From contig CANQDB010000001.1 of assembly GCA_947591175.1 (NCBI GenBank), positions 1 to 36,469 on the forward strand: DNA of 36,469 nt, read 5' to 3'. The notes beneath the pieces are model-generated. The model searched no databases. It was not told where the DNA came from and saw nothing but the letters and a program-made list of their open reading frames with translations. Positions 69-35,244 of the stretch are shown in pieces. Source of the stretch: an uncultured Bacilli bacterium. GTDB lineage: Bacteria > Bacillota_I > Bacilli_A > RF39 > UBA660. A program made the translations under genes and the position numbers. Numbering within the stretch: position 1 is the first letter of the stretch; every line of letters begins with the position of its first letter.

Positions 69-100
69 ATTATAAGCCAAACATACCCCCCCCCAGTCAA
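69..100 (-). promoter_or_regulatory. Promoter P1 copy 1: TTGACT, 20-nt spacer with G9, TATAAT
   Basis: Minus strand reads TTGACT (95-100), GGGGGGGGG (86-94), TATGTTTGGCT, TATAAT (69-74). Confidence 0.5.
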
Positions 101-109
101 GCAAATCAG

Positions 110-137
110 CAAAAAACACCTGTCAAATTGACAAGTG
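110..137 (-). terminator. Intrinsic terminator after the 260-aa gene; part of the cassette
   Basis: Minus strand CACTTGTCAATTTGACAGGTG hairpin (117-137) followed by TTTTTT. Confidence 0.6.
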
Positions 138-163
138 CTTGATATTACTTTCTAAACTTTCTT

Positions 164-2327: not shown

Positions 2328-3743
2328 TTATCGTTTCCGTTGTATTTTCTTTTTGATTATAGAAAAGACTTTTTTAATGAATGGCATGTTGTAAACTAAG
2401 AAGAGAATTGCCGCTAAAATGGCGCCTAAAATATAAAAATAAAGGTTTTTACTGTAGTAGCAGAAGACTATTATAACTCCATAGAATAAATATGTTAAAA
2501 ACATTTTATAATCTAATTTTATCTTCATGTATTTTCGAATATCGATATAACGATATATGGCCATCGTAAAATAGGCAACTAAAGTTGAAATTGATGCTGC
2601 ATATAAGCCGATAACCTTAATGAGGGCTAAATCGATAACAATATTTATTAACGCCGCAAATATCGAAGTTTTAGCCACTTCCTTAGTTCGCTTAAGAGCG
2701 ACATAAATGGATCCCAATAACGAAACTAAAACATTAAAGATAGTTGCAATTAGTAATATTGGTATTTGATAATACGCTCCACTATACCCTTCTCCAATAA
2801 TAAGGAAAGAAAATAAGAATGGCATAAACGCAATAAGACCTAAACACATCGAGACAAAGATACTCATAATAAAGTTAATCATTTTACTAAAGTACTCTGC
2901 ATGGTCATCATCATTAATATACATAGCTGCGGACTCTTGCCAAGTCATATTTAAAATACCAAACAAAGTGATACAAATACTTGAAATCTTATTAGCGGAA
3001 GAATAGACTCCATTTAAACCAATTCCTAATAAACATGTCACGATTATTCTATCCGAAGTATTTACTACCCACCACGATAACTGATTTGGAACAAGCGGAA
3101 TTGAGTATTTCCAAAGTTTCTTTCTCTCACTCTTAGAATAGGTTTTAAAGTCGATGTAACGATATAGTTTTTCTTTAAAGAAGACAAATATACATCCAGC
3201 GATATTTCCAAACAAAGTTGCAGCCAGCATTCCGTTGGCTCCCCAACCGAAGAAAGCAATTAAAATAACATTTAAGATAATAGTAAAACTTCCAGTTATA
3301 AGACTTCCAACAGAGTAAACTCCATTATGTCCAAAACCTCTTGCTATTTCCAAAAAGACATTAGATAATTCGGCAAATATTAAGTTAACTAGCAAAAAGT
3401 ATTGGTATTGGTTATGTATAAAAGGTGATATCAGTAAATAAATAATTGAAAAGATTAAAGTTTGAACTCCAGTCGTCATTAAAACAGTAGTAATTAAAGT
3501 TGTCTTTCTTTCTTCTTTTTTCCGTTCATCTATTAAAAAGCGAAATAATGCTTGATCAATCTGTAAAAATAGTAAAGGTAGCATAAGTGAAATCAAGGTG
3601 TTTAATAAATCGATAGTTCCATATTCTTCAGTAGATAGTAAAGCGGTATATAAAGGCAACAAAAAGAAACTAATAAAACGAGTCGCAATTTTACCTAAAG
3701 CCACGACCAGAGTATTTTTAGCTAGTTGTTTTTCGCGATTCAT
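2328..3743 (-). CDS. MOP-superfamily oligosaccharide/polysaccharide flippase (Wzx-like)
   Basis: 471 aa with about 12-14 TM helices. N-terminus LAKNTLVVALGKIATRFISFFLLPLYTALLSTEEYG is typical of the Polysacc_synt family. RBS AAGGAG. Confidence 0.75.
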   Translation of the reverse strand: MNREKQLAKNTLVVALGKIATRFISFFLLPLYTALLSTEEYGTIDLLNTLISLMLPLLFLQIDQALFRFLIDERKKEERKTTLITTVLMTTGVQTLIFSIIYLLISPFIHNQYQYFLLVNLIFAELSNVFLEIARGFGHNGVYSVGSLITGSFTIILNVILIAFFGWGANGMLAATLFGNIAGCIFVFFKEKLYRYIDFKTYSKSERKKLWKYSIPLVPNQLSWWVVNTSDRIIVTCLLGIGLNGVYSSANKISSICITLFGILNMTWQESAAMYINDDDHAEYFSKMINFIMSIFVSMCLGLIAFMPFLFSFLIIGEGYSGAYYQIPILLIATIFNVLVSLLGSIYVALKRTKEVAKTSIFAALINIVIDLALIKVIGLYAASISTLVAYFTMAIYRYIDIRKYMKIKLDYKMFLTYLFYGVIIVFCYYSKNLYFYILGAILAAILFLVYNMPFIKKVFSIIKKKIQRKR

Positions 3744-3858: not shown

Positions 3859-5859
3859 TTATGGAACCAAAACCAGGTGGAACGAGTTGGTGACGTTCGC
3901 ATCCCCAATGTAGTAGCCGAAGTCGAATACACCCGTACTAGAATTGTGATAGATGCCGCCGCGGCAGAACCAAGGTTGCGACGATTTCACGAAATATTGA
4001 TTGTCATTATACCATCCGGCTGTTTCCGATAAAGCATGTCCATAACATATTCCTTCTTCACATGCTAAAGAAGCAGACTCATCTTCAGGATTCGAACTTG
4101 TGTATAAATCATAATATTTTTCATTTGGAAAGTCTATTCCAACATTCGAACAATCTCCTGAACGACATGTTCCATTAAAGCCCGAATTAGCTACTAGTAA
4201 AAATCCGCTTCTTGGTTGTCCATCGTCATCAGCGAGAACTCCCATGACATATTCATCTGCTCCTCCTGACATATCATACACTCCTGTGATATTTCCAGTA
4301 GTCGAGGCTCCAGGGCCTGCTAATCCTTTTCCATCTTTTAAATCTGTCATATCATCATATTCATATTGTCCTTCTTGTCTAGAGTCTTCTTGAGATGGTG
4401 TTCCATTACTATTTCCCGTTATATAAGTAGTTGATTTATTTTGATATACTTCTTTATTGGCACCATTATATAAAGAATTTCCATACTTTCCATATGTACT
4501 TTGTGAAAGATATGCTATTGCTCCCCACTCACTATTCTTACTCATATGAGTATCTTCTATTCCACTAAATCCATACTCTTCTTTAAATTCATTTGCCATT
4601 TTTTGCGATACTGTAAAGGCTTTAGCCACTTGAATATGTCCCCAGGATACAACATTTGGCTTTATTTGTGGTTTTATTGTATCTACATTACAAGTTTCTT
4701 TACCACTACAAGATGTTTCAGGACTCGTTTCAAATTTTCCATACCAGAATCCTTCTAATTCTTCTTCTCCAAAAGTAAATGCTGGATGTAATTTATAATT
4801 TCCTCCACTTTCTCCTGCTGTTCCACTTAAAAACTGCACCTTTATTTCTCCTGGAGTTTCTTGTGAACCTCCTGCATATTCAGCAATATTTACATAATCA
4901 TACTCATATCTTGGTATCCATACCCACATCGTATTGATATATTGTTCATCAATTACAGTATTTTCTGTAGCCCGAGTCAATGTTTCTCTTTGTTCTTCGA
5001 CTACTGTTACGGCATTAGCCCATTCTTGATTACAATAATTATACCAACTATTATCTTTGTTATCTTTGTCTGCTACTACCCAATTTCCATCTTTATAAAC
5101 AACTGGAATCATTCCTTGGGCTAATTGTGGTGCATTTGGTGTTGGTAATTCTTCACAAGTATTTTGTGATTCATTTTTTGGTTCAAGTGGTGGAGGTAAT
5201 TCTTCATTACTTGCATACACATTAACATTTACTGTGAACGTCTTTCCACCATATACCCATGAACCATTCTCATCAAATTCACTGGCACTTTCATCTATCC
5301 ACATACGATATCTATATGTCTTTTTAAAGTCTTCTTGATTTTCTTCTACCTTATCTTGTTCTAATGTCTTACCATTTCCTTCTTCTATTACAGATGGTTC
5401 TTGGCTTATCCATAGTTTGTTATAGATATTTACTTCTTGATTTGTCCATTTGTTTTGGATTGGTGTTTCACTATCTACTTCTCCTACACTTGTTAAATAT
5501 GTATCTACTACTTTTTCTTCTAGGGTAGAGCCATCTTTCTTCGTTAAATAGATTCCATAGTAAATTGGTGAACCTAGGGTCGTTGCCCTTACTTCGAACT
5601 CAAACATTCCTTGTCCACTTTGAGTTTTTCCATCGTCTGTTGTCATTGGAAAAGCATTTTGAATATTGATACTATTACTTGGCTTTTCGCTTAACTCATC
5701 ATAGACAAAGTATAATCTACCTGTTGTTAAAACGTTTTCTTGTTGTCCTTGTCTAGTATAAGTATAAAATGCATATGTTCCGCCTATCGTTAAGAGAACT
5801 AAACCTAGTACTAAAACTAGTATTAATACTTTCTTTTTTTGATTGTTTTTTTCGTCCAT
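3859..5859 (-). CDS. Family paralog A: SipW-type signal + TasA-like N-module + Cys-rich FGE/C-type-lectin-like C-module (666 aa)
   Basis: KKKVLILVLVLGLVLLTIGGTYAFYTY signal. The N-module is shared with 12528-13979. The C-module motifs WVWIPRYEY, HPAFTFGEEELEGFWYGKFETS, TGNITGVYDMSGGADEY and CRGG are shared with 32097-35042. Confidence 0.85.
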   Translation of the reverse strand: MDEKNNQKKKVLILVLVLGLVLLTIGGTYAFYTYTRQGQQENVLTTGRLYFVYDELSEKPSNSINIQNAFPMTTDDGKTQSGQGMFEFEVRATTLGSPIYYGIYLTKKDGSTLEEKVVDTYLTSVGEVDSETPIQNKWTNQEVNIYNKLWISQEPSVIEEGNGKTLEQDKVEENQEDFKKTYRYRMWIDESASEFDENGSWVYGGKTFTVNVNVYASNEELPPPLEPKNESQNTCEELPTPNAPQLAQGMIPVVYKDGNWVVADKDNKDNSWYNYCNQEWANAVTVVEEQRETLTRATENTVIDEQYINTMWVWIPRYEYDYVNIAEYAGGSQETPGEIKVQFLSGTAGESGGNYKLHPAFTFGEEELEGFWYGKFETSPETSCSGKETCNVDTIKPQIKPNVVSWGHIQVAKAFTVSQKMANEFKEEYGFSGIEDTHMSKNSEWGAIAYLSQSTYGKYGNSLYNGANKEVYQNKSTTYITGNSNGTPSQEDSRQEGQYEYDDMTDLKDGKGLAGPGASTTGNITGVYDMSGGADEYVMGVLADDDGQPRSGFLLVANSGFNGTCRSGDCSNVGIDFPNEKYYDLYTSSNPEDESASLACEEGICYGHALSETAGWYNDNQYFVKSSQPWFCRGGIYHNSSTGVFDFGYYIGDANVTNSFHLVLVP

Positions 5860-5889: not shown

Positions 5890-5921
5890 ATTATAAGCCT
5901 ATCATACCCCCCCCCAGTCAA
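5890..5921 (-). promoter_or_regulatory. Promoter P1 copy 2: TTGACT, 20-nt spacer with G9, TATAAT
   Basis: Minus strand TTGACT (5916-5921), G9 (5907-5915), TATGATAGGCT, TATAAT (5890-5895). This is the only promoter-like element between the parC terminator and the ATG at 5859. Confidence 0.55.
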
Positions 5922-5931
5922 GCAAATTAAC

Positions 5932-5958
5932 AAAAAACACCTGTCAAATTGACAAGTG
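5932..5958 (-). terminator. Intrinsic terminator after parC; part of the cassette
   Basis: CACTTGTCAATTTGACAGGTG hairpin followed by TTTTTT on the minus strand, 6 nt after the parC stop. Confidence 0.6.
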
Positions 5959-5963
5959 TAAAA

Positions 5964-8495
5964 TTAAATATCTAAGAAATCGTCGATTGTCATCAGACGA
6001 TCATCGATTTCTTTTAACGAGACCGTTTTCTTTACTGGCTCCTTTTGGGCTTCGTTACTTTCGATTTCCATTTCTTCTTTTTTCTCTAAATCCTTAACAA
6101 GGAAGGCATCGATTAATACTCCTTTATGAACTGTACTTCCAGTTGAATAACGATCCATAATTGGAAGTTCCGTTAATTTAATAGTATCGATTCCATCACC
6201 TTTGAAACCCAAATAGTTCTTAGTATCGACTACAAAGGTTCGTAAAACGTGATATGGATTAGTCTTCACTTCCCGGAATAGTAAAAGTCCACGTCTTGCT
6301 CTCGTTGATTTCTCAAAATCTGAAAGTTTAACTCGTTTACCAGTACCTTTATCGGTTACAACTGAAACATACTCGGTATTATTAGCATTGAAACAGGCAA
6401 CACTTACTACTTCGTCATCTTTCAAATTAATTCCTTTAACTCCACTAGTTTTAGTACCGACAAGTGGAATATCATCTCTATCGAACCATAAACCATAGCC
6501 ATTCTTAGTACCGATAAAGATATCGTTATAAGTCGTAAAGAAAGCATCCACGACATGATCTTTATCCTTTAACTTCATACAAGTAACAGGCTTAGTGTAT
6601 CTTGCAATCTTGAAGTCTTTTAAAGGGGTACGCTTAATCATACCACTAGCACTAGCAATCGTAATATCTTGGTTCGTTTCAAATGATGATACTGGAAGGG
6701 CTGCGACTAATTCTTCGGTTTCATCCATTTTGATAATATTACTTATGTGTTTACCTAAATCTTTCCATTTTAAATCAGGTAATTCGTGCACTGGCACAAA
6801 TAGATAATTTCCTAAGTTCGTAAATAATAACAAAGTATCCCAAGTATTAAGTTCAAAGCACCCTATTAGGTAATCGTTTTCTTTAAGACTCGTATCTTCA
6901 TTAGTTGCTTGGAAACTTCTAAAACTACTCCGTTTAACGTAACCATCTCTGGTAACAGTTACAATGACATCTTCTTTTGGAATCATAGCGGACGTATCGA
7001 TTGTAATCTCAGTTATTTCATCCTTGATTTCTGTTTTACGCAGAAGTCCATACTCTTTCTTAACTCGTCTTAATTCTTCTTTCATAACTTCTTTAAGTTT
7101 TTCTTCGTCCGATAGAATTTTTTCAAGGCCTGCTACGACGATTCTTAAATTCTTTAACTCTTCCTCTAGTAAAGTGACATCGGTATTCGTCAATTTATAA
7201 AGTTGTAAGTTGACGATAGCCTCGGCCTGTTCCATCGTAAATTCAAACTCTTTAACTAAGTTTTCTTTAGCATCGGTTTTATTTTTACTACCTCTAATAA
7301 CTCTGATAACTTCATCTAGAATTGAAAGGCACTTGATAAGTCCTTCGACGATATGAAGACGTTTCTTAGCCGTTGCTAAATCGAAATTAGTTCTTCGTAA
7401 AATTACTTCTTTTTGGTGACGGATATAAGCGTCTAACATTGGAATGAGGCCAAGTAAACGCGGTCTTCTATTCTCGATAGCCACCATGTTGTAGTTATAC
7501 GATATTTGTAAATCGGTATTCTTGTATAAATAATTGAGGACTAAATCACGATTACAATCTTTCTTTAAATCAATAGCAATACGTAAACCATCTCTATCTG
7601 ATTCATCACGGACTTCAATCATACCATCGATTTTCTTATCGATTCTAATTTCATCTATTTTACGAACTAATAAAGCCTTGTTTACTTCGAAAGGAATCTC
7701 ATCGATTACTAAGGTGAGTTTTCCTTTTTCTTCTTCGAACCGCGTTTTCGCCCTAACTACTACACGACCTCGACCTGTTTCATAGGCTTCTCTTATTCCG
7801 TCTTTTCCTTCGACAATTCCACCTGTTGGAAAATCAGGTCCTTTGACGATTTCTAATAACGTTTCAAGTCTGCAATTAGGGTTATCGATTCTATGAATCG
7901 TCGCTTGAATAACTTCATCTAAATTGTGAGGTGGAATATTAGTGGCATATCCTGCAGAAATTCCTGTCGTACCACTTACTAAAAGATTTGGGTACTTGGC
8001 AGGAAGTACCGTTGGCTCCATAATCGTATCATCGAAGTTAGGAGCAAACTGAACAGTATCTTTTTCGATATCTTTTAATAGTTCGTTACTAATCTTGGCA
8101 AGACGTGCTTCCGTATAACGGTAAGCAGCAGGGCTATCACCATCGATTGAACCGTTGTTACCATGCATATCGATATATGGATGACGACTCTTCCAATCTT
8201 GACTCATTCGAACCATTGCTTCATAAATAGAACTATCGCCATGCGGATGGAAATTACCGATAACATCTCCGACTGTTTTAGCACTCTTTCGATAGCCATG
8301 GTCGTAAGTGTTTTTTTCTCTAAACATCGAGTACAAAATACGTCTTTGAACAGGCTTTAATCCATCTCTCACATCGGGAATAGCCCTATCTTGAATGATA
8401 TACTTCGAGTAACTTCCAAATCTTTCACCCATTATCTCTTCGAGTGAATAATGATAAATCTTCTCGATAATTTCTTGTGTTTTTTGTTTCTTCAT
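5964..8495 (-). CDS. parC: DNA topoisomerase IV subunit A
   Basis: FGSYSKYIIQDRAIPDVRDGLKPVQRRILY and catalytic AAYRYTEARL. No GyrA-box after VTRDGYVKRSSFRSF. Sits downstream of parE. Confidence 0.9.
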   Translation of the reverse strand: MKKQKTQEIIEKIYHYSLEEIMGERFGSYSKYIIQDRAIPDVRDGLKPVQRRILYSMFREKNTYDHGYRKSAKTVGDVIGNFHPHGDSSIYEAMVRMSQDWKSRHPYIDMHGNNGSIDGDSPAAYRYTEARLAKISNELLKDIEKDTVQFAPNFDDTIMEPTVLPAKYPNLLVSGTTGISAGYATNIPPHNLDEVIQATIHRIDNPNCRLETLLEIVKGPDFPTGGIVEGKDGIREAYETGRGRVVVRAKTRFEEEKGKLTLVIDEIPFEVNKALLVRKIDEIRIDKKIDGMIEVRDESDRDGLRIAIDLKKDCNRDLVLNYLYKNTDLQISYNYNMVAIENRRPRLLGLIPMLDAYIRHQKEVILRRTNFDLATAKKRLHIVEGLIKCLSILDEVIRVIRGSKNKTDAKENLVKEFEFTMEQAEAIVNLQLYKLTNTDVTLLEEELKNLRIVVAGLEKILSDEEKLKEVMKEELRRVKKEYGLLRKTEIKDEITEITIDTSAMIPKEDVIVTVTRDGYVKRSSFRSFQATNEDTSLKENDYLIGCFELNTWDTLLLFTNLGNYLFVPVHELPDLKWKDLGKHISNIIKMDETEELVAALPVSSFETNQDITIASASGMIKRTPLKDFKIARYTKPVTCMKLKDKDHVVDAFFTTYNDIFIGTKNGYGLWFDRDDIPLVGTKTSGVKGINLKDDEVVSVACFNANNTEYVSVVTDKGTGKRVKLSDFEKSTRARRGLLLFREVKTNPYHVLRTFVVDTKNYLGFKGDGIDTIKLTELPIMDRYSTGSTVHKGVLIDAFLVKDLEKKEEMEIESNEAQKEPVKKTVSLKEIDDRLMTIDDFLDI

Positions 8496-8505
8496 GAAAA
8501 CACCC

Positions 8506-9057
8506 CTATTCTGTTATGGTTCGAATATAATATTTATTAATACTATGTAACATTTTTTGATCATTTACCTCTTGAATATTTGCTAAAACATCCTGAATTA
8601 CGTAACACTCGTTTTCAAGTTCTAAAAAGTCATTAGGATAATGTTTCTCAAAGTAACTTAGAACTTTTTGAAAATAATATAAGTCCATTGCTCTAGAGTA
8701 TTCTTTATTTTCAACTAATTGATTAGCTAACTCATCAGTTAAGGCCACATCTTTAATTGCTTGGAGATGCTTACATTGATCCAAATGCCTGTCTAGTAGT
8801 AGTTGAATACATCTTTTCTTTGTAAAGCGAGGTTTATAACTTTTCTTTATTCCTTTTTTATCGTAATTATTTAGTTGCTCTTGTATAAGTGTCAATTTTT
8901 TTAATCTCGTTTCTTTATCTTCGACTAAAAGAATTGATAATACACTGGAAATTGAAAAATTATCACTTGGAACTTGCTCCACTAAATAATCGATAACTGT
9001 ACCAAATGGTACAATTTTTTTAATGATGCTTTCTATTTCTTTTCTTGTTAATGCCAT
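8506..9057 (-). CDS. Hypothetical 183-aa protein wedged between parE and parC
   Basis: Full ORF with an ATG start, 17 nt after the parE stop and 10 nt before the parC start. No family recognised. Confidence 0.6.
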   Translation of the reverse strand: MALTRKEIESIIKKIVPFGTVIDYLVEQVPSDNFSISSVLSILLVEDKETRLKKLTLIQEQLNNYDKKGIKKSYKPRFTKKRCIQLLLDRHLDQCKHLQAIKDVALTDELANQLVENKEYSRAMDLYYFQKVLSYFEKHYPNDFLELENECYVIQDVLANIQEVNDQKMLHSINKYYIRTITE

Positions 9058-9074
9058 ATTTAAAGAGTTCCCTT

Positions 9075-10976
9075 CTATATAATGTAATCAGCTTCAAGTG
9101 AGAATTCGACATTCTCATTGATCCATTCTTTTCTTGGTTCAACCGCATCCCCCATTAAGACGCTTACTCTCTTTTCGGCTAGTAAAGCATCGTTTATATC
9201 GACTTGGATTAAGGTCCTAGTGGCGGGATTCATCGTGGTTTCGGCTAGTTGATCCGCATTCATTTCACCTAATCCTTTGTAACGTTGAACTTCACATTTT
9301 TTAGTGCCGATAATCTCTTTCATTTCTTCGGTTGTATAAGCGTAACGATGTTCTTTACCATCTTTAATCAAATATAATGGTGGCATCGCGATAAAGAGAT
9401 GTCCATGTTCGATTAAAGGCCGCATATAACGATAGAAGAACGTTAAAAGTAAGCACTGGATATGGGCTCCATCGACATCGGCATCGCTCATGATGATAAC
9501 TTTGTTGTACTCCGCTTCATCGATATTAAAGTCTGCTCCAATTCCCGCTCCTATCGTATAAATCATCGTATTGATTTCTTCGTTTTTAAAGATATCTTCA
9601 AGTTTTGCTTTCTCGGTATTGATAACTTTTCCACGTAGTGGAAGTACTGCTTGGAATTTACGATCTCGTCCTTGTTTCGCTGAACCTCCAGCGGAATCTC
9701 CCTCTACTAAAAAGAGTTCTTTTTTAGTTTTATCCTTTGTTTGAGCAGGCGTTAATTTACCAGATAAGGCTCGTTCTTTCGGATTCTTACTCTTGCCTTT
9801 ACGAGCCTCTTCTCTTGCTTTTCTAGCGGCTTCTCTTGCGGCTTTACTCCGTAACGACTTATCGATAATATCTTCGGCAATCTTCTTGTTTTCTTCCAAA
9901 TAGAAAGCAAGTTTTTCCGAAACTACCGCATCGACTGCTGTTCTTGCCTGAGGAGTACCTAATTTTCCTTTAGTCTGGCCTTCGAACTGTAAAATATTTT
10001 CTGGGATCTTCAAACTGATAATCGCTGTCAAACCTTCCCTGACATCGCTTCCTTCGAAAGCCTTTTCTTTGCCTTTGATAATTCCTCTTTCTTTACAATA
10101 GTCGTTAAATACTCTAGTTAAGGCTGTCTTAAACCCAACTTCGTGACTTCCGCCATCGATTGTCTTAACATTATTTACAAACGAAATAATATCTTCGTTA
10201 TAAGTATCTGTGTACTGCATCGCAATATCGACTTCAATTTTATCTTTGACACCTGTAAATAAAAGTGGTTTTTGCAAGGTAACTTTACCTTCGTTTAAGT
10301 ATTCGATATAGGCTTCAAGTCCATTTTCATAACAGTATTTGGCTTCTTTACCATCCTCTTCATCGATAATTTCGATAGTCAAACCTTTAAGTAAGAAGGC
10401 TGACTCTTGCATCCTTTCACATATCGTCGTGAAAGAAAAATTAGTCGACGAAAAAATCGAATCATCCGGTAAGAAACGCACAGTCGTTCCTGTCCGATTA
10501 GTCGTTCCAATTTGTTTTAAAGGAGAAGCAACCTTACCACCATCTTTAAACTTAATTTGATAGATTCCTTTATCTTTATGAATAGTTACTTCCATCCATT
10601 TTGATAACGCATTAACGACACTTCCTCCAACGCCGTGAAGTCCACCTGAAACTTTGTAACCACCACTTTCAAATTTTCCTCCAGCATGTAAAACTGTATA
10701 AATAACTTCTGGAGTACTTCTTCCTGTCGAGTGCATTCCGACTGGAATTCCACGTCCGTGGTCTTCCACTGAAATACTTCCATCTTTATGAATAATTATC
10801 TTGATATAATCGCCATAACCATTGATAACTTCATCGATTGAGTTGTCGACAATTTCCCATACTAAATGATGAAGTCCTCTTTTATCAGTTGAACCGATAT
10901 ACATTCCAGGGCGTTTTCTAACTGCCTCTAATCCTTCTAGAACTTTAATCGAATTCTCATTATATATGGTTGCCAT
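9075..10976 (-). CDS. parE: DNA topoisomerase IV subunit B
   Basis: GHKL N-terminus LEGLEAVRKRPGMYIGST and Toprim EGDSAGGSAKQGRDR. Assigned ParE rather than GyrB by its pairing with a ParC-type A subunit. Confidence 0.85.
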   Translation of the reverse strand: MATIYNENSIKVLEGLEAVRKRPGMYIGSTDKRGLHHLVWEIVDNSIDEVINGYGDYIKIIIHKDGSISVEDHGRGIPVGMHSTGRSTPEVIYTVLHAGGKFESGGYKVSGGLHGVGGSVVNALSKWMEVTIHKDKGIYQIKFKDGGKVASPLKQIGTTNRTGTTVRFLPDDSIFSSTNFSFTTICERMQESAFLLKGLTIEIIDEEDGKEAKYCYENGLEAYIEYLNEGKVTLQKPLLFTGVKDKIEVDIAMQYTDTYNEDIISFVNNVKTIDGGSHEVGFKTALTRVFNDYCKERGIIKGKEKAFEGSDVREGLTAIISLKIPENILQFEGQTKGKLGTPQARTAVDAVVSEKLAFYLEENKKIAEDIIDKSLRSKAAREAARKAREEARKGKSKNPKERALSGKLTPAQTKDKTKKELFLVEGDSAGGSAKQGRDRKFQAVLPLRGKVINTEKAKLEDIFKNEEINTMIYTIGAGIGADFNIDEAEYNKVIIMSDADVDGAHIQCLLLTFFYRYMRPLIEHGHLFIAMPPLYLIKDGKEHRYAYTTEEMKEIIGTKKCEVQRYKGLGEMNADQLAETTMNPATRTLIQVDINDALLAEKRVSVLMGDAVEPRKEWINENVEFSLEADYII

Positions 10977-12527: not shown

Positions 12528-13979
12528 TTAGGGTTTGACTTGAACTACAGTTTCCGGATTATTAAGATTCATATCACTTGCATTATCAATAAACCATTGC
12601 TTTGTAGAATCATCTTTAACATAGATTGAGGTTAATTGACGACAATAAGCGAACATACCTGACATATCAGTTACGTTTGAAGTGTCCCACCCACTTAAAT
12701 CTAGAGTGGTTAATTGGATACATCCTTGGAACATACCATTCGTTTCTGAATATTCAGAAATTGACAACGTAACTTTAATAGACATTAATTTCAAACTTGA
12801 TGTATCCCAATTACTTAAGTTTAGTGAATTTAAACTACTACATGAGGCAAACATACCACCAGCATTTTCAATTAAACTTGCATTATAATTTGTAAAATCA
12901 ATTGATTTTAAACTCATGAAATAAGCAAAAGAGGAACTAGAATCAGGATTTCCATAGGTCTCTCCATTTGAAGCTATTACTAAATCATTACATTGTGTAG
13001 GAGTACCTTCTTCAAAAAAAGAATTATTACAAGTTACTCCTTCATCATTAGGAATCATGTAAGCCATAACACTTCCATCCTGTTTCTCAGATATATCCCA
13101 TTGATTATCTTTAGAAACACTTTCTGGAATTTCTATTTCGTTTTCGAAACGAATATTGCTTATAGAAACTATTTTATCCATTGTGTGAAAGTCAGTATTT
13201 GAATACATTTGACTAAGATCACCACTCATTAAACTATCAAAATTATAAGTCCAACTTTGCATTACTCCTACTGGGGTTGGAGAAGGTAGTTCTTCATTTG
13301 AGGCATAGACATTTACTTTAACCGTAAAACTCTTTCCTCCATATATCCATTCTCCTTTACCATTAACACCCTCGGCACTTTCATCTAGCCACATACGATA
13401 TCTAAATACCTTAGAGTATTCTTCATTATTAGTACTTGGTATTGTTTCTTGATATAATGATTTACCTTGTTGTCCTTCTTCCAATACTGGTACATGACTA
13501 TTCCATAAGAATTGATATTGGGTTACTCCATTATCTTTTGTCCATTTATTGTCCCAACTTAGTTTAACTAAAGTTTCAGCACTATTTTCTCCTTTTTTAC
13601 CAGTAGTAGTTAAATACGTATCTACTACTTTCTCTGGTAAAGTAGAGCTTTCATCTTTAGTTAAATAAATCTCATAGTTGATATCTGCTCCTTGAGTTTT
13701 GGCTCTTACTTCGAACTCAAACATTCCAGGTTTTTCTTGAACCATTCCCTTTTCATCACTTACTGGAAAGGCATTACCAATTGTAATTTTATTACTGTCT
13801 TCCACGTCTGGTAACTCATCATAAACAAAATATAAAGATCCTGTTGTTAAAACATGTTCCTCTACTCCTTGTCTAGAATAAGTAAAGAAGGCATAAGTAG
13901 TTCCTACTGTTAAGAGAACTAATCCTAATACTAAAACTAGTATCAATACTTTCTTCTTTTGATTTTTCTTTTCTGGCAT
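12528..13979 (-). CDS. Family paralog B: SipW-type signal + TasA-like N-module + DUF285/BspA-type LRR head (483 aa)
   Basis: Start taken at MPEKKNQKKK (ATG 13979, RBS AAGGAG); the upstream extension to 14027 looks spurious. C-terminal repeats MFASCSSLNSLNLSNWDTS and MFQGCIQLTTLDLSGWDTSNVTDMSGMFAYC. Confidence 0.85.
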   Translation of the reverse strand: MPEKKNQKKKVLILVLVLGLVLLTVGTTYAFFTYSRQGVEEHVLTTGSLYFVYDELPDVEDSNKITIGNAFPVSDEKGMVQEKPGMFEFEVRAKTQGADINYEIYLTKDESSTLPEKVVDTYLTTTGKKGENSAETLVKLSWDNKWTKDNGVTQYQFLWNSHVPVLEEGQQGKSLYQETIPSTNNEEYSKVFRYRMWLDESAEGVNGKGEWIYGGKSFTVKVNVYASNEELPSPTPVGVMQSWTYNFDSLMSGDLSQMYSNTDFHTMDKIVSISNIRFENEIEIPESVSKDNQWDISEKQDGSVMAYMIPNDEGVTCNNSFFEEGTPTQCNDLVIASNGETYGNPDSSSSFAYFMSLKSIDFTNYNASLIENAGGMFASCSSLNSLNLSNWDTSSLKLMSIKVTLSISEYSETNGMFQGCIQLTTLDLSGWDTSNVTDMSGMFAYCRQLTSIYVKDDSTKQWFIDNASDMNLNNPETVVQVKP

Positions 13980-14052
13980 AAATAAAAACACACTCCTTAC
14001 TACTTTAGTTTTTACAAAAGAAACCATTCTATACGCTACCTAGTATATTTTT

Positions 14053-14081
14053 AATATACCCGTTTTACGTGTATAAGTCAA
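14053..14081 (-). promoter_or_regulatory. Promoter P2 copy 3: TTGACT, 17 nt, TATATT
   Basis: Minus strand TTGACT (14076-14081), 17-nt spacer, TATATT (14053-14058), about 70 nt upstream of the ATG at 13979. Confidence 0.5.
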
Positions 14082-14164
14082 TTACACTTCAAAAATTTGA
14101 AACCATAAAAGTTTCACTTTACGTGATGTATATTTCCTTTTGTAAGTCCCTCTAGTATATATTA

Positions 14165-14195
14165 ATTATAAGCCAAACATACCCCCCCCAGTCAA
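14165..14195 (-). promoter_or_regulatory. Promoter P1 copy 3: TTGACT, 19-nt spacer with G8, TATAAT
   Basis: TTGACT (14190-14195), G8 (14182-14189), TATGTTTGGCT, TATAAT (14165-14170). Confidence 0.5.
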
Positions 14196-14202
14196 GAAAA
14201 TT

Positions 14203-14232
14203 CAAAAAAAGACCTGTCAAGTTGACAAGTGC
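14203..14232 (-). terminator. Intrinsic terminator after the 274-aa gene; part of the cassette
   Basis: ACTTGTCAA-C-TTGACAGGT hairpin followed by TTTTTTT on the minus strand. Confidence 0.55.
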
Positions 14233-14249
14233 ATTTTCATTCTAATTTC

Positions 14250-15074
14250 TTATCTATTTGTAGATGGAACTCTTTTTAGTAAAGTAAATGGTGGATATGA
14301 CTCTTCCTTTGGAAATGGATAATATGGAATATCTCGTGGAACTTTATCTACTCCTTTACGTAGAGGAATATTTAAAGAATTCAAATTAATCATAACATCC
14401 ATCGCTTGATCAATTGTATAACCTTCGACTTCCATTAAGAACGATAACCCATTTTTACCATTGATAACATTCTTTTCAGTATCTATCCATAACAACTCAC
14501 AATCAGTCTTCTCTTTTACTTTAGGACTAGCCACCATAAAATAAGTAGCAAACTCGTTGTCGTAACGAACTTCCACTGAAGTATTTGGTGAGACATAAAA
14601 TGGAGCCAGTGCCAGTAAAGATGACTCTTGTAAGACCTTTCTTCTTTCTTCAAAAGAATACTTGTCATCTCTTAAACGAGTCGTAAGTAAATCCTCAACA
14701 AATGGTTCTAACTCTTTATTTCTTATTTCACCTAAATGAATATATGGTCTAAATGAGGAATCCTCTTTCTTTAACTCATCAATTACTAAATTATAATAAC
14801 GACAGGCTTCTATAAAAAGAGGTACTTGAACTATTTCATCACAAGTCTCTTCTAGACAAGTATACTCGGCAAGTAGAATTTCTCTTAAAGCATTGTTTTG
14901 ATAAGGTCCGTTAGTTAAAAGAGCCCTTCTTACATTTTCCTTTTCAGCTAGTGGTACTCTTCCTTCTAACTTCCTATACAAGTTTCTTGCTCGGTACTCG
15001 GTAAGTGTTCTTCCTTTCTTATAAAGTCTACTTCCATTTTGATGATAAAATTCTTGGATTTCTTTTCTTTCCAT
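14250..15074 (-). CDS. Hypothetical protein (274 aa)
   Basis: Long ORF. The ATG at 15074 has AAAGGAG 8 nt upstream. No family recognised. Confidence 0.6.
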   Translation of the reverse strand: MERKEIQEFYHQNGSRLYKKGRTLTEYRARNLYRKLEGRVPLAEKENVRRALLTNGPYQNNALREILLAEYTCLEETCDEIVQVPLFIEACRYYNLVIDELKKEDSSFRPYIHLGEIRNKELEPFVEDLLTTRLRDDKYSFEERRKVLQESSLLALAPFYVSPNTSVEVRYDNEFATYFMVASPKVKEKTDCELLWIDTEKNVINGKNGLSFLMEVEGYTIDQAMDVMINLNSLNIPLRKGVDKVPRDIPYYPFPKEESYPPFTLLKRVPSTNR

Positions 15075-15125
15075 TTTCTTCACTCCTTTTCCAAAAAAAA
15101 GGAAAAATAGCGGTAATTAGAACAA

Positions 15126-15344
15126 TTACTGATATTTTTCCATTGTCTTCATCATTTGATTTATTTGTTTTTGTGATGGCTTTCTTCCCATTTGCATCAT
15201 AAGAGCTTTAATCATTTCTTCATTAATTGGTGGATTCTTCTTTAAATAACGTTTCATTAGATAACGAGCAACGAAGAAACCGATAACAAGACCAATAACT
15301 AGACCTAGAAGTAAATATAAGATATCGTTAAGACTAGCACTCAT
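15126..15344 (-). CDS. yneF: UPF0154/YneF family small membrane protein
   Basis: One TM helix followed by [34 protein letters not shown], the family signature. Confidence 0.85.
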
Positions 15345-15379
15345 GGTATCATCTCCTTACTAACATTCTACTATTTCTT

Positions 15380-15811
15380 TTAATTAATCGCAAGACTTTT
15401 TAACTGATTTAACCAAAAATAATCATTTGAAGAAAAGTCACAGACAAAATAATTATGATTTTTTTCTAATAAATATGGAAAGAACGAAGAAACATTTTGA
15501 TTAGACGTAATTAAAATATGACTGTTTTTAACCACTAAGATACTTACTTCGTCGCGATATAAATCGTTCATAATATGCTGTTGTCCACTTTTCGAATAAG
15601 GCATCTTTTTATGTAGTTCTATAAAAAGTCTCTTATCTAAAGAAGATTTACCAATTCGTTCCGTCAGCTGATTAAAAAGATTGAAAGCATAATCGATATC
15701 TCCTTCATGCATATAGTAAAGTTGTTTCATTATTTGAAAGAGTAATTCTGGTTGATCCTTATAAAGAGAAGCAAACTCTTCTTTCATTGAAAATATATAA
15801 TATACACGCAC
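15380..15811 (-). CDS. SirA/YneE-like protein (DUF2522, sporulation inhibitor of replication family)
   Basis: N-terminus YYIFSMKEEFASLY and C-terminus FVCDFSSNDYFWLNQLK resemble B. subtilis SirA as I recall it. The tkt-sirA-yneF neighbourhood matches B. subtilis. GTG start. Confidence 0.5.
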   Translation of the reverse strand: MRVYYIFSMKEEFASLYKDQPELLFQIMKQLYYMHEGDIDYAFNLFNQLTERIGKSSLDKRLFIELHKKMPYSKSGQQHIMNDLYRDEVSILVVKNSHILITSNQNVSSFFPYLLEKNHNYFVCDFSSNDYFWLNQLKSLAIN

Positions 15812-15877
15812 TATCCATCACCAAAAACAATATAGCAAGTTGGAATGCCATTTTTTGTCAAAAAAAGGAAACTCTAG

Positions 15878-17860
15878 TTAAAAAGTTCCCTTAATTTTTT
15901 TGACAATGGAATCTATATCCATCTGATAATTTTTTAAGATATCATCCCTCTTACCACTAGCTCCAAAAGAGTTAACAGTAATTAAGTATTTATCGTTATA
16001 GACAAAGGAATACCACGAGTAAGAAGAAGACGCTTCAATAACAAAAGTTTTAATGGTTGGTGGCAATACACTTTCTTGATACTCTTGTTTTTGTTTCCGA
16101 AAGCGTTCGATCGAAGGCATACTTACAACACGTAAGTCAATTCCTTGGTCTTTTAGTATTTGTCTTGCTTCGATTGCTAGAGCCAACTCTTCACCTGTCG
16201 CAATGATGACACCTTGTAAATATTGTTCTTCTGAAATAACTATATAGCCACCTTTATCAACTTCGTTAACATTAGTACATGGTTGAATTGGTACCTTATT
16301 CCGTCCTAAAATAATTGTGGCCGGTCCATCTTTCTTATTAAGAACTGTCTTGTAAGTACCTATTACTTCGTTAGCATCCGCAGGCCTGAATACTTCGAAA
16401 TTAGGAGTTGCTCGTAAAGAGATAAGTTGTTCAACTGGCTCGTGGGTTGGACCATCTTCCCCGACTGCAATAGAGTCATGAGTCAAAATATATATAACTG
16501 GCAAGTTCATTAAGGCACTCATTCTAAGTGCTGGTTTCAAATAATCCATAAACACTAAGAAAGTCGAGGCAAAAGGACGTAAGCCACAAAGACTCAAGCC
16601 ATTTGAGATAGCAGCCATTGCATGTTCTCTTACCCCATAACGAATATTTTTACCGTTTGGATGATCCTTCGTAAAGTCTTCGAACTCTTTTAAATATGTT
16701 TTGTTACTAGTTGCTAAATCGGCACTTCCGCCTAGAAAGAACGGAGTGGATTCCGCAATAGACTGTAACACTTTACCTGATGCGTCTCTTGTCGACTCCA
16801 TACCATCCTCAGGGGCTTCATAAGTAAGATTTATCTTTTTAAAGTCGATGTCTCTTTTCTCTAAAGATGTAAGAAGTGAAAGAGTCTCTTCGTCTAAACT
16901 TTCCTTTTTACTTTGCCAAGTTTTATAAACTGAATCAACTCGTTCATGAATTTGTTTTTGGAAGTCTTCCATTGCTTCTTTCGATATAGCAAAAGGTAAA
17001 TCGTGAAAATTTAATTTTTCTTTTATTTGCGAAATATCTTCTACATCTAATGGTGTACCATGAACAAGTGGAGTTCCTTCATTTTTAGAATACTTGCCAA
17101 TCGTCGTCTTCACTTCGATTAACGTAGGTCTTTTATCTTCTTGTTTGGCATCACTTATAGCCTTGTCGATTGCCCTTATATCTTCGCCATCTTCAACTAA
17201 GATATAGTTCCAGTTCATCGAAAGGAATCTATCTTTAATATTTTCTGTAAATGTCGTATCCGTCTTACTATCAAGAGACACTTTGTTAGAATCATATAAA
17301 ACAATTAAACGGTTTAAACCTAAAGTTCCAGCAAGAGAGGCGGCTTCGTAAGATACTCCTTCCATTAAATCACCATCACCACAAAGGACATAGGTGTAAT
17401 GATCGATTACTTTTTTCTTAAAAAAGGTGCGTAAGTACACTTCACCAATCGCTAACCCGACAGCACTTGCTATTCCTTGTCCTAAAGGTCCAGTTGATAA
17501 GTCAACACCAATTTTTTCATTTAATTCAGGGTGTCCTGGGGTCTTTGAACCAAATTGCCGAAAATCTTTTAAATCTTCAATTGTAAGAGGAAATCCTCCT
17601 AAAAACAAAGTTGCATAAAGCAAAGCTGACCCATGCCCTGCCGATAACACAAATCTATCTCTGTTAATCCAGGCTGGATCATTTGGATTTGCAACTAAAT
17701 GATGAGCATATAACGTATAAATAATAGGGGCTGCTCCTAGTACAATACCAGGATGCCCATTTCCTGCTTCGTTAATCATATCGAGTCCTAGGATACGTAA
17801 CTGATCAACTATTTTCTTTTCATTGATAGTATTTTCACTCTTACCGATAATTGGAAACAT
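15878..17860 (-). CDS. tkt: Transketolase
   Basis: 660 aa with GNGHPG, ThDP motif GDGDLMEG and HDSIAVGEDGPTHEP. Confidence 0.92.
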   Translation of the reverse strand: MFPIIGKSENTINEKKIVDQLRILGLDMINEAGNGHPGIVLGAAPIIYTLYAHHLVANPNDPAWINRDRFVLSAGHGSALLYATLFLGGFPLTIEDLKDFRQFGSKTPGHPELNEKIGVDLSTGPLGQGIASAVGLAIGEVYLRTFFKKKVIDHYTYVLCGDGDLMEGVSYEAASLAGTLGLNRLIVLYDSNKVSLDSKTDTTFTENIKDRFLSMNWNYILVEDGEDIRAIDKAISDAKQEDKRPTLIEVKTTIGKYSKNEGTPLVHGTPLDVEDISQIKEKLNFHDLPFAISKEAMEDFQKQIHERVDSVYKTWQSKKESLDEETLSLLTSLEKRDIDFKKINLTYEAPEDGMESTRDASGKVLQSIAESTPFFLGGSADLATSNKTYLKEFEDFTKDHPNGKNIRYGVREHAMAAISNGLSLCGLRPFASTFLVFMDYLKPALRMSALMNLPVIYILTHDSIAVGEDGPTHEPVEQLISLRATPNFEVFRPADANEVIGTYKTVLNKKDGPATIILGRNKVPIQPCTNVNEVDKGGYIVISEEQYLQGVIIATGEELALAIEARQILKDQGIDLRVVSMPSIERFRKQKQEYQESVLPPTIKTFVIEASSSYSWYSFVYNDKYLITVNSFGASGKRDDILKNYQMDIDSIVKKIKGTF

Positions 17861-17948
17861 CTAACCACTTCTTTCTACTATTTCTATTCTAACCTTATTA
17901 TAGCAAATGACAAAGTTCTACTCAAGATTCCTTGCCACAACTTGACAT

Positions 17949-17973
17949 AGAAAAAAGAGGAACCAATCCTCTT
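17949..17973 (-). terminator. Intrinsic terminator after the 449-aa surface-protein gene
   Basis: AAGAGGA-TTGGT-TCCTCTT followed by TTTT on the minus strand; overlaps the stop codon. Confidence 0.55.
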
Positions 17974-19321
17974 ACTTGTTTTCATCATCGAATAAATCTT
18001 CGATATCATTTAAAATATCCGAGCGATCGACAACAGGTGCTTCGATTGTTTTTTCTAAAAGATCTTCTTCGCTCATATTTTGACTTGCTAAAGGTGAAGT
18101 TTCAACTGTTTCAGTAGGCACTTCCTCTTGAACTTTCTCTATTTCACTTGGAGTAGATTCAACAGAATCTTCTTCGTCCTTTTTCTTCTTAGCTTCTTTT
18201 TTCTCTTTCTTAAGTCTAATTTTTTCTGGATCTCTTGATTTTATAAAGAAGAAGATACCAAGACCCAACATTAATAAAGCAAGTATTGCAAAAACAACAA
18301 TCATTATGTATTTGCCGAAATCATTTTCATCCGAAGAATCGGCTAATACATCTCCAGTACTAGTAATTGATGAAGTATTTGAAGTAGTTTCTTTCCACTC
18401 GCCTTCTTTTAAACGTAACACATTGATAGTATAATCTTGGGTTGCACCAGTTGAATAAGTAACTCTAACTGTTACTGTGTTTTCCCCTACTACTAAATTC
18501 TTATTATTGAGTACTTCAACTGAAGCATAAGGTGAATTAGCCATAGCTCTTACTGTAATTTCCTCTACTTCGTAAGGAATCTTAACCGTATAGTAATAAA
18601 CATCGCTTTGGAAAGCTTCTTCTAAGGCATAACCATCAACTTTTAAGGAATCTAGTTTTACATCAGGATTTTCTCTTGTCACAACAATCGTATACTCTTT
18701 TACTTTATCGTTAGTATCTTTTAATTTAGTCGACACCGTAAAGACGTTACGTCCATCTTTTAAAGTTTTAGTACCGATAGAATCTAAGTTAACAATCGAT
18801 GAATTTTCGTCAGGTGTGGCATTGATTTTAATAACCTTTGTTTCTGGTGGAACAGTTACTGAATAAGTAGTCGTATCCTTATTAAATGCTGGACTTAGTT
18901 TATAGTCATCTAGGGATAATGAAGAAAGATAACTACTTTCTGGAACTGGTTTTTGAGGTTCATTGGAAACCCATACTGCTTTTAAAGTTATATCTTCTGT
19001 CACTTCTTCTAAGAAAGTATAAGTTTTACCATTAAGTTGCCATTCTTTAAAGGTAAAGCCATCTTTCGTAGGATCTTCACTTGGTTTCGCAACTGTTTTA
19101 CCTTTTTCTACTTTTTGAGAATTAACACTACTTCCTCCATCTGTATCAAAAGTAACAGTAAATGTTTCAGTTTCAGGTTCTTCTGGTGAAGCACTAGGGC
19201 TTGGACTTGGATCAGGGGATTCTGTTTCACTTGGACTAGTTGTTGGTTCAGCTAAAACATTATATGGTAAAGTTAATCCTAATATAAGTAAGAAAACTAA
19301 TAAACATTTTAATTTTTTCAT
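17972..19321 (-). CDS. Surface protein: signal peptide, Listeria-Bacteroides (InlB B-type) repeat, two cadherin-like beta-sandwich domains, C-terminal TM and acidic tail
   Basis: TVTFDTDGGSSV...GKTVAKPSEDPTKDGFTFKEWQLNGKTYTF. Two repeats of the form LSSLSL...L.PAF...TTYSVTV. TM helix IMIVVFAILALLMLGLGIFFFI. No LPXTG motif. Confidence 0.75.
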   Translation of the reverse strand: MKKLKCLLVFLLILGLTLPYNVLAEPTTSPSETESPDPSPSPSASPEEPETETFTVTFDTDGGSSVNSQKVEKGKTVAKPSEDPTKDGFTFKEWQLNGKTYTFLEEVTEDITLKAVWVSNEPQKPVPESSYLSSLSLDDYKLSPAFNKDTTTYSVTVPPETKVIKINATPDENSSIVNLDSIGTKTLKDGRNVFTVSTKLKDTNDKVKEYTIVVTRENPDVKLDSLKVDGYALEEAFQSDVYYYTVKIPYEVEEITVRAMANSPYASVEVLNNKNLVVGENTVTVRVTYSTGATQDYTINVLRLKEGEWKETTSNTSSITSTGDVLADSSDENDFGKYIMIVVFAILALLMLGLGIFFFIKSRDPEKIRLKKEKKEAKKKKDEEDSVESTPSEIEKVQEEVPTETVETSPLASQNMSEEDLLEKTIEAPVVDRSDILNDIEDLFDDENK

Positions 19322-35042: not shown

Positions 35043-35101
35043 AGTTATCAAACTCCTTACAACATTTAGTCTTTATCAAAAAGTCTTTATTATACAATTT
35101 A

Positions 35102-35130
35102 ATAATACTCACTTCTGGTGTATAAGTCAA
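35102..35130 (-). promoter_or_regulatory. Promoter P2 copy 4: TTGACT, 17 nt, TATTAT
   Basis: TTGACT 35125-35130, 17-nt spacer, TATTAT 35102-35107. The spacer sequence differs from copy 3 but its length is the same. Confidence 0.5.
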
Positions 35131-35212
35131 TTGCACTTCAAAATTTGAAACCCTTAAAGTTTCACTTTACGTGAAGTATATTTCCTTTTGCAACTCCCTC
35201 TAGTATATATTT

Positions 35213-35244
35213 ATTATAGCCCAAACATACCCCCCCCCAGTCAA
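35213..35244 (-). promoter_or_regulatory. Promoter P1 copy 4: TTGACT, 20-nt spacer with G9, TATAAT
   Basis: TTGACT 35239-35244, G9 35230-35238, TATGTTTGGGC, TATAAT 35213-35218. Confidence 0.5.

Follow-up and report, generated by a model that had tools for sequence, protein, structure and literature searches.

The stretch of DNA considered here (the window, 36,469 nucleotides from an uncultured Bacilli bacterium) contains, in its list of open reading frames (ORFs), three minus-strand genes whose products have a common N-terminus and which we refer to as paralogs A, B, and C; all of their parts given here are likewise on the minus strand. Paralog A (3859–5859) encodes a 666-aa protein consisting of a signal peptide, an N-terminal module (N-module), a Pro-rich linker, and a head of ~430 aa, and it matches the family hidden Markov model (HMM) with an E value of 7e-73. 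Its residues 1–30 (5770–5859) comprise a Lys-rich n-region, an uncharged h-region, and a c-region reading G-G-T-Y-A, with a proposed SipW-type cut after A30. Residues 31–224, the mature N-module (5188–5769), start with a conserved flexible N-terminal segment (31–56) that is followed by a predicted jelly-roll beta-sandwich, the junction and Pro-rich linker (PPLEPKNESQNTCEELPTPNAPQL) occupy 5116–5187, and the head (3862–5151) has a short GMIPVVY..WANAVTV motif and a ~370-aa domain common to C. Paralog B (12528–13979; family HMM E 1.6e-71) has 483 aa counted from MPEKKNQ, in an ORF that extends to 14027, and its signal peptide (13890–13979) and module (13278–13889) are followed by a head unlike that of A, with DUF285/PARCEL (BspA-like leucine-rich) repeats at 12570–12929 that match PF03382 and TIGR02167. 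Paralog C (32097–35051; 984 aa; family HMM E 3.4e-34) begins with a signal peptide (~34956–35051, proposed cut after A32) and a divergent module (~34506–34955), beyond which lie 2 Bact_surface_Ig-like domains, a Laminin_G_3 domain, and a head of the A type.

The domain-swap junction between A and B is real. In BLASTP, residues 1–224 of A match residues 1–234 of B with 141 identities in 235 positions (60%), 71% positives, and an E value of 2e-65, and the match ends exactly at NEELP(P/S)P, past which the comparison returns noise alignments only. At the DNA level, identity is 57–85% per 60-nt block over most of the module, with two blocks at ~52–58%, and past codon 225 it is 43–55% in the next three blocks and then 20%; the DNA upstream of A and B is unrelated at the level of this block alignment. 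A sequence-only reading of the window had described the 2 proteins as collinear through the N-module and unrelated thereafter, and the point at which the BLASTP match stops bears this out. It had also put their identity at about two-thirds by eye and the end of the module at position 5206; the common module and the junction both stand, but the measured identity is 60% and residue 224 corresponds to window position 5188, slightly beyond. The same reading had assigned to C a divergent, collinear version of the module, which agrees with the 25% identity to the module of A (E 4e-12) and with the family HMM match. A and C have in common a C-terminal domain of ~370 aa (45% identity, E 1e-92) that is missing from B. 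A is thus like B in its module and like C in its head, so shuffling is evident in both directions.

Pfam and NCBIfam searches with A, B, and C recognise the heads alone (DUF285/PARCEL in B; Ig-like and Laminin_G_3 in C), and no model in either collection covers the module. The head of B scores 50.9 bits on PF03382 (cut-off 25) and 86.7 bits on TIGR02167 (cut-off 30) and so belongs with the PARCEL/DUF285 repeats. The head of A and C (3862–5151 and 32100–33180, minus strand) carries the motifs INTMWxWIPRYEY, HPAFxFG, GxWxGKFE, and TTGNIxGxYDMSGG and appears to be an uncharacterised domain; it has no sequence relative in the PDB, and Pfam gives a weak FGE-sulfatase match (E 0.0038) in the C copy only. 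Across the module family, the heads are interchangeable, as the sequence-only reading had proposed from the window alone: in addition to the common head of A and C and the different head of B, the C-terminal parts of 78 longer members include cadherin-like (25), ALK/LTK glycine-rich (11), DUF285 (10), and LRR_5 (9) domains, together with Flg_new, LamG, Ig-like, and other types. Proteins of 650–690 aa, the same length as A, recur among the closest relatives from metagenome-assembled genomes (MAGs).

An exhaustive profile search, preceded by a word-indexed search that recovered few relatives, puts the module family at 5759 clusters at E ≤ 1e-3 and 2760 at E ≤ 1e-10, with the module always N-terminal (residues ~1–215) in proteins of 204–1781 aa. 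The family is represented in 77 loci from gut Bacilli/Tenericutes MAGs, with many paralogs per MAG and at least 11 in one. The genome matches are to MAGs of uncultured gut organisms, sampled from rabbits, Hadza humans, and mice, and their labels read Bacilli, Tenericutes, or Mycoplasmatota (Clostridium sp. CAG:451 is included) and in a few cases Muribaculaceae, Clostridia, or Phocaeicola vulgatus, and bovine metagenome contigs also yield family matches. Within one genome, the first ~70 residues of the paralogs are nearly identical, and the best identity to A among the MAG family members is 48%. An exact-sequence look-up of protein A returned no record, and literature searches returned nothing on the module in gut Bacilli. 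A wall-less, Mollicutes-type host is unlikely; the hosts of the family are taken to be walled because related contigs carry the peptidoglycan-synthesis genes mraY, ftsW, murG, and murB.

The family takes 2 forms: module-only proteins of ~200–230 aa, encoded in tandem in an operon, and scattered head-fused genes whose products run from the module through a Pro-rich linker to a head of the PARCEL/BspA leucine-rich repeat, cadherin-like, Ig-like, LamG, or A/C type. Two close module-only relatives do not lie near sipW. One (P0033), an ortholog of B, has an insertion sequence (IS) element directly downstream and is therefore probably truncated, and the other (P0041) stands by itself within the dcw (cell division/cell wall) cluster.

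The operon form is associated with a signal peptidase of the SipW type. When the first 84 loci were searched for peptidase genes, a strict motif regular expression gave 0 loci and a looser one gave 1, and phmmer and hmmsearch together gave 10. In these ten MAG loci, the peptidase is always just downstream of 2–4 tandem module-only genes, carries the motifs SxSMxP, THR, and KGDxNN, and is of the S26B (SipW/archaeal) type, not A24. At locus L047, for example, three module-only genes for proteins of 206, 217, and 203 aa stand in tandem, and the gene directly after them encodes a protein of 266 aa that contains SPSMEP, THRIV, and KGDNNNTED, scores 98.2 bits on TIGR02228 (cut-off 51.85), and has an E value of 5e-27 on the Bacillus SipW model NF046067. 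The operon is syntenic, lying between tatD and rsmA, and contains the module-only genes, sipW, a divergent module of 173–182 aa, and two small membrane proteins of ~230 and ~150 aa that could be anchor or assembly factors; it is conserved at L047 (1045–5531) and at L037, L038, L040, L045, L048, L050, L052, L053, and L068. A metagenome scan starting from the peptidase recovered 80 loci, 62 of them with at least 700 nt of upstream sequence, and family genes lie upstream of the peptidase in about 47 of these 62. A group of the remaining loci has a head-bearing member of ~750 aa directly downstream of sipW.

The N-termini of the family have the geometry expected of such a peptidase's substrates. 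The Lys-rich n-region, hydrophobic core, and G-G-T-x-A-x-F-type motif that the sequence-only reading had picked out hold up in a model-registered alignment of 170 family members, which have a basic n-region, a hydrophobic core, and a G-x-T-x-A-type c-region. In the numbering of A, position 30 (−1) is A, S, or T and position 28 (−3) is T, S, or A in all 170, which satisfies the −3/−1 rule established for type I signal peptidases. G26 is kept in 162 of the 170, position 29 is aromatic, and F32, Y34, G38, N42, G47, F51, Y53, and E55, which follow the proposed cut, are each kept in 154–167. The uncharged stretch before the cut has a median length of 21 residues (range 20–23). In the conservation profile, residues 21–50 are among the best-conserved blocks of the module, with only the RYRMWIDE block (181–190) higher. 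We infer that a SipW-type peptidase cleaves after A30 in A and after A32 in C, and the window's own genome presumably encodes sipW.

The connection to TasA and camelysin runs through intermediate sequence profiles. The distant family members P0021 and P0022 reach a sub-threshold 13–15 bits on PF12389 (cut-off 22.5), and P0024, which the family profile finds weakly (E 0.76), is yet a PF12389 member at 42.8 bits, with relatives that are short proteins of ~207 aa annotated PF12389. These PF12389-like short proteins match the BsaA model (TIGR04090) in 16 of 19 cases and the TasA model in 12 of 19, and they match TasA chains in the PDB at E 0.05. Aligned by hhalign, the window's family and the PF12389-annotated short proteins give a probability of 98.3% and an E value of 2e-14 over 198 columns, signal region and tail included. 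With mature domains only, the P value is 5e-4 to 9e-4 and the probability 24–32% over 99–130 columns; the alignment runs collinearly between the P-x-D motif and the last strand, YxGKxF, and a reversed control has P 0.23. A C-terminal tail, ECTDxxCxLNELY, is also common to short members of the two families. TIGR04090 is not among the 25 NCBIfam families most often matched by the 50 members of the window's family that were scanned, so at most 1–2 of the 50 match it. Taken as profiles, these sequences point to a real but distant homology between the window's family and TasA-like proteins, best supported for the N-terminal 60 residues.

In its fuller form, the tail reads YxN-E(N/Y)TECTDxxC(S/A)LNELYxxI, with two Cys and a helix-like end. 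It is carried by P0007, P0013, and P0014 in the window's family, by P0223 and its relatives among the PF12389-like proteins, and by the product of L005 7989–8624; A, B, and C are without it. Directly downstream of the PF12389-like gene at L005 lies a gene for a 173-aa protein (8627–9148) in which a hydrophobic stretch is followed by TTVYASYNYF, a variant of the family's signal and motif, and a sortase gene lies 2.5 kb upstream.

An AlphaFold2 (AF2) model of the full-length module, built from a 50-sequence alignment, has a mean predicted local distance difference test (pLDDT) score of 87.9 and consists of a helix at residues 2–37, a low-confidence segment at 38–59, and then a beta-sandwich. The mature domain alone is predicted with a pLDDT of 87.6 and a predicted TM-score (pTM) of 0.84; its residues 1–13 have pLDDT below 50, residues 11–30 average 50–59, and the rest is at 87 or above per 10-residue block. 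In a Foldseek search of the PDB with the helix-containing model, the TasA fibre (8aur) is second in the list and has the highest probability (0.99) and the highest TM-score (0.35), with AbpA (7ueg) and CanA (9hdi) lower down. The predicted fold of the module is a jelly roll, as in TasA (PMC9674648), with no robust preference of Foldseek for TasA. In TasA, residues 28–38, directly after the SipW cut, are the donor strand, and residues 48–61 form the strand that self-complements the monomer (PMC9674648). The segment of the A model that corresponds to these 2 stretches is its low-confidence part and is highly conserved, which may be an indirect hint of polymerisation by donor-strand complementation.

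The upstream regions of the paralogs are also conserved in one respect. The window holds only four G/C homopolymer tracts of at least 7 bases, and all are in one type of conserved cassette of ~95 nt that contains a terminator-like hairpin, TTGACT, G8–9, 11 nt, and TATAAT. The cassette of A lies at 5890–5959 (G9 at 5907–5915, spacer 20 nt), that of B at 14165–14230 (G8 at 14182–14189, spacer 19 nt), and the promoter core of that of C at 35213–35244 (G9 at 35230–35238), all on the minus strand; a fourth, at the left edge of the window (69–138, minus strand, G9 at 86–94), points to a gene off the window. The optimal promoter spacer is 16–18 nt, and the 19–20 nt of the cassettes lie outside this range. 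Related loci, 1.74 Mb in total, contain 28 such tracts, of which 16 are situated upstream of family genes. The phase-variable surface-protein families of Neisseria (porA/opc) and Mycoplasma hyorhinis (vlp) likewise have homopolymer tracts in the promoter spacer, corresponding here to G8–G9 between TTGACT and TATAAT. The arrangement suggests that each paralog may be switched on and off by slipped-strand phase variation at its poly-G tract.

B and C, not A, have a further conserved leader of ~130 nt between the poly-G promoter and the start codon (13980–14150 and 35052–35200, minus strand), with short hairpins (TTCACGTAAAGTGAA and TTTCAAATTTTGAA) and a second promoter-like site, TTGACT-17-TATATT (14081–14053). 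An Rfam scan of the window returned two tRNAs and an L21 leader only, and nothing for the B/C leader.

We consider it probable, at roughly 0.6, that A, B, and C each consist of a TasA-class SipW-cognate signal and a diverged jelly-roll module of the TasA superfamily fused to interchangeable adhesin-like heads. If so, the proteins would be exported by the Sec pathway, and a SipW-type peptidase would cut after the invariant small residue (A30 in A, A32 in C). This would free the conserved flexible segment FYTYTRQGQQE..TTGRLYFVYDE, which is positioned like the donor and self-complementing strands of TasA. The jelly-roll module would then act as a common adaptor from which the variable heads are displayed outward, and by way of the freed segment the head-bearing paralogs could nucleate fibres made of module-only subunits, plug into them, or decorate them, with the poly-G tract in the promoter spacer switching the expression of each paralog. 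The step from adaptor to fibre is drawn by analogy with TasA/TapA and with archaeal TasA-superfamily loci, in which genes for a tip adhesin and an anchor accompany that for a signal peptidase (bioRxiv 10.64898/2026.01.04.697558), and it is by the same analogy that we infer incorporation of the head-bearing paralogs into fibres by donor-strand complementation.

A number of results weigh against this assignment. The proposal of a SipW-processed, TasA-like module in the sequence-only reading gains from the linkage to sipW in relatives, the invariant geometry of the cut site, and the profile-to-profile link, but it fails on the named HMMs: A, B, and C have no match at E ≤ 1 to PF12389 in Pfam or to TIGR04088 in NCBIfam. 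TIGR04088 matches 2 of 50 family members, at E 2.5, and in a control it finds just 3 of 19 PF12389/BsaA-like proteins (best E 0.007) and is therefore an insensitive model. A search of the PDB with the family profile gave no match to a TasA chain. The hhalign signal is owed mostly to the signal-peptide region and the common tail, and the mature domains alone stay at the 24–32% probability given above. The comparison by Foldseek upholds the jelly-roll fold without pointing specifically to TasA, since 8aur is lost when the mature-domain model is used: TasA is then not in the top 50, and the leading matches, none of which reaches a TM-score of 0.36, are Eph ligand-binding domains, carbohydrate-binding modules (CBMs), and picornavirus capsid jelly rolls. 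Motif regular expressions, phmmer, and hmmsearch detect no signal peptidase gene in the 36-kb window, and none of the 80 loci from the metagenome scan is a sipW operon from the window's lineage, their modules being at most 34% identical to A or B. Finally, 21 residues without charge are also enough to cross a membrane.

The last point is the starting point of the main rival, in which the signal is an uncleaved anchor. The head-bearing proteins would then belong to the type II membrane proteins, their module would form a stalk close to the membrane, and only the short operon paralogs would be substrates of SipW. The stretch of 20–23 uncharged residues would suffice for a transmembrane helix, AF2 gives residues 2–37 as a single continuous helix, most of the weak NCBIfam matches are to proteins anchored at the N-terminus (such as FliL, EmrA, AmaP, and RodZ), and the head-bearing genes are scattered among housekeeping genes rather than beside sipW. 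However, the small residues at −3 and −1 and the motif that follows them are kept equally strictly in head-bearing and operon members, and the ~750-aa members at some sipW loci show that a head-bearing gene can lie directly downstream of the peptidase. An uncharged stretch of the same length also precedes the known cleavage site of TasA, which we count against an anchor. The mature TasA protein starts at residue 28 (PMC9674648). We regard a permanent anchor as unlikely. A pilin-like alternative would put the cut at the other end of the same helix: the signal would be of class III, removed by a prepilin peptidase ahead of the hydrophobic helix, and that helix would then drive assembly of a type IV pilus. 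The family-profile searches of the PDB, which gave nothing significant, have archaeal pilins (6nav and 8tib, E about 0.1) as their best matches, and one distant family member lies 4–5 kb from T2SSF and prepilin-peptidase genes. Against this, there is no conserved G/A/S at the boundary of the n-region and h-region and no FTLxE-type motif, the conserved motif comes after the hydrophobic stretch and not before it, and the linked peptidase is S26B and not A24. On the position of the motif and the type of the peptidase we reject this reading as highly improbable.

A different objection concerns the mature domain. The module could be a jelly-roll or carbohydrate-binding-type domain unrelated to TasA, placed behind a lineage-specific secretion signal, so that the likeness would reside in the signal and a common fold only. 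The CBMs, Eph domains, and viral capsids that lead the mature-domain Foldseek list would fit this, as would the low mature-domain hhalign probability and the lack of any match of A, B, and C to a TasA-type Pfam or NCBIfam model. Every one of the Foldseek matches is equally weak, though (TM-scores 0.2–0.36), the mature alignment to the PF12389-like family is collinear and beats its reversed control, and both families have the same C-terminal tail. The operon, with its small subunits, SipW-type peptidase, minor subunit, and membrane proteins, moreover matches the make-up of TasA-superfamily loci. An unrelated jelly roll seems to us quite improbable.

If the assignment to the TasA superfamily is correct, the closest known counterparts would be TasA of B. 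subtilis and CalY of B. cereus (PF12389), with which the window's family has in common a Lys-rich signal, ~21 uncharged residues, a G-x-T-aromatic-A cut site, a conserved segment after the cut, a predicted jelly roll, and, in relatives, a SipW-type peptidase beside small subunits, as in the tapA-sipW-tasA operon. It differs from them in that it has no direct HMM match, the similarity being seen profile-to-profile only, in its module of ~195 aa with motifs of its own (NAFPMxD and RLRMWIDE), in the large C-terminal heads that most members carry and that TasA and CalY are without, and in its multi-copy genes scattered around the genome. BsaA of Clostridium perfringens (TIGR04090, SipW-dependent biofilm matrix proteins) is connected to the window's family through the bridging PF12389-like proteins, and a report on its polymers describes intermolecular isopeptide bonds (PMC11580942). 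The head-bearing proteins would also resemble TapA and, in archaeal Tafi loci, the predicted tip adhesins; these are minor proteins with an N-terminal segment like the donor strand of the major subunit, and they nucleate, anchor, or tip the fibre (PMC9674648; bioRxiv 10.64898/2026.01.04.697558). Unlike these, the proteins described here have a complete subunit-like module fused to many alternative heads, and a genome holds dozens of these genes, each with its own promoter. By these comparisons, the family would take its place in the TasA superfamily, a grouping of recent definition, as a new variant in which the module is fused to heads and has expanded massively.

In Bacillus, fibres of the TasA type serve as scaffolds of biofilms, a role that has more recently become known in archaea as well. 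The family described here would be an unmodelled branch of thousands of clusters, found in uncultured Bacilli with small genomes from the guts of humans, mice, rabbits, chickens, and ruminants, in which the subunit module is a universal N-terminal adaptor for many adhesin-like heads. If the adaptor inserts into fibres, this would be a new way for Gram-positive commensals to present binding domains from a switchable set and would give a function to a large block of hypothetical proteins from gut metagenomes. We put forward only tentatively, as a possibility that is somewhat doubtful, that the head-bearing paralogs act as adhesins which can replace one another, vary in phase one by one, and tip or decorate a common TasA-like fibre, entering it by donor-strand complementation, with the fibre itself polymerised from the module-only subunits of the sipW operon. 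If true, uncultured gut Bacilli would possess a chaperone-free, Gram-positive equivalent of the chaperone-usher pili that carry adhesins at their tips, with a combinatorial repertoire of heads. At minimum, the module family deserves its own profile model and annotation.

Other genes in the window also encode surface or membrane proteins. The product of a minus-strand gene at 17972–19321 is 449 aa long and carries an ordinary signal peptide, beta-sandwich repeats in tandem, and, at its C-terminus, a transmembrane anchor that has an acidic tail. It is a surface protein of a second type, anchored in a different way from the paralogs of the same region. The region from B to this gene (12528–19321) is syntenic with positions 8001–9964 of locus L085, with a cadherin-like protein, a transketolase, and a SirA-like protein of 143 aa; the L085 ortholog of the 449-aa protein is annotated Flg_new and Cadherin-like, and its ortholog of B is a 232-aa module-only protein with an IS element (rve transposase) directly after it, the head therefore having probably been lost. 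Just downstream of paralog A, a Wzx/MATE-like flippase gene (2328–3743) adjoins 2 adjacent minus-strand genes (164–946 and 1004–2266) whose products start with a zinc-ribbon-like CxxC...CxC pattern followed by membrane segments.

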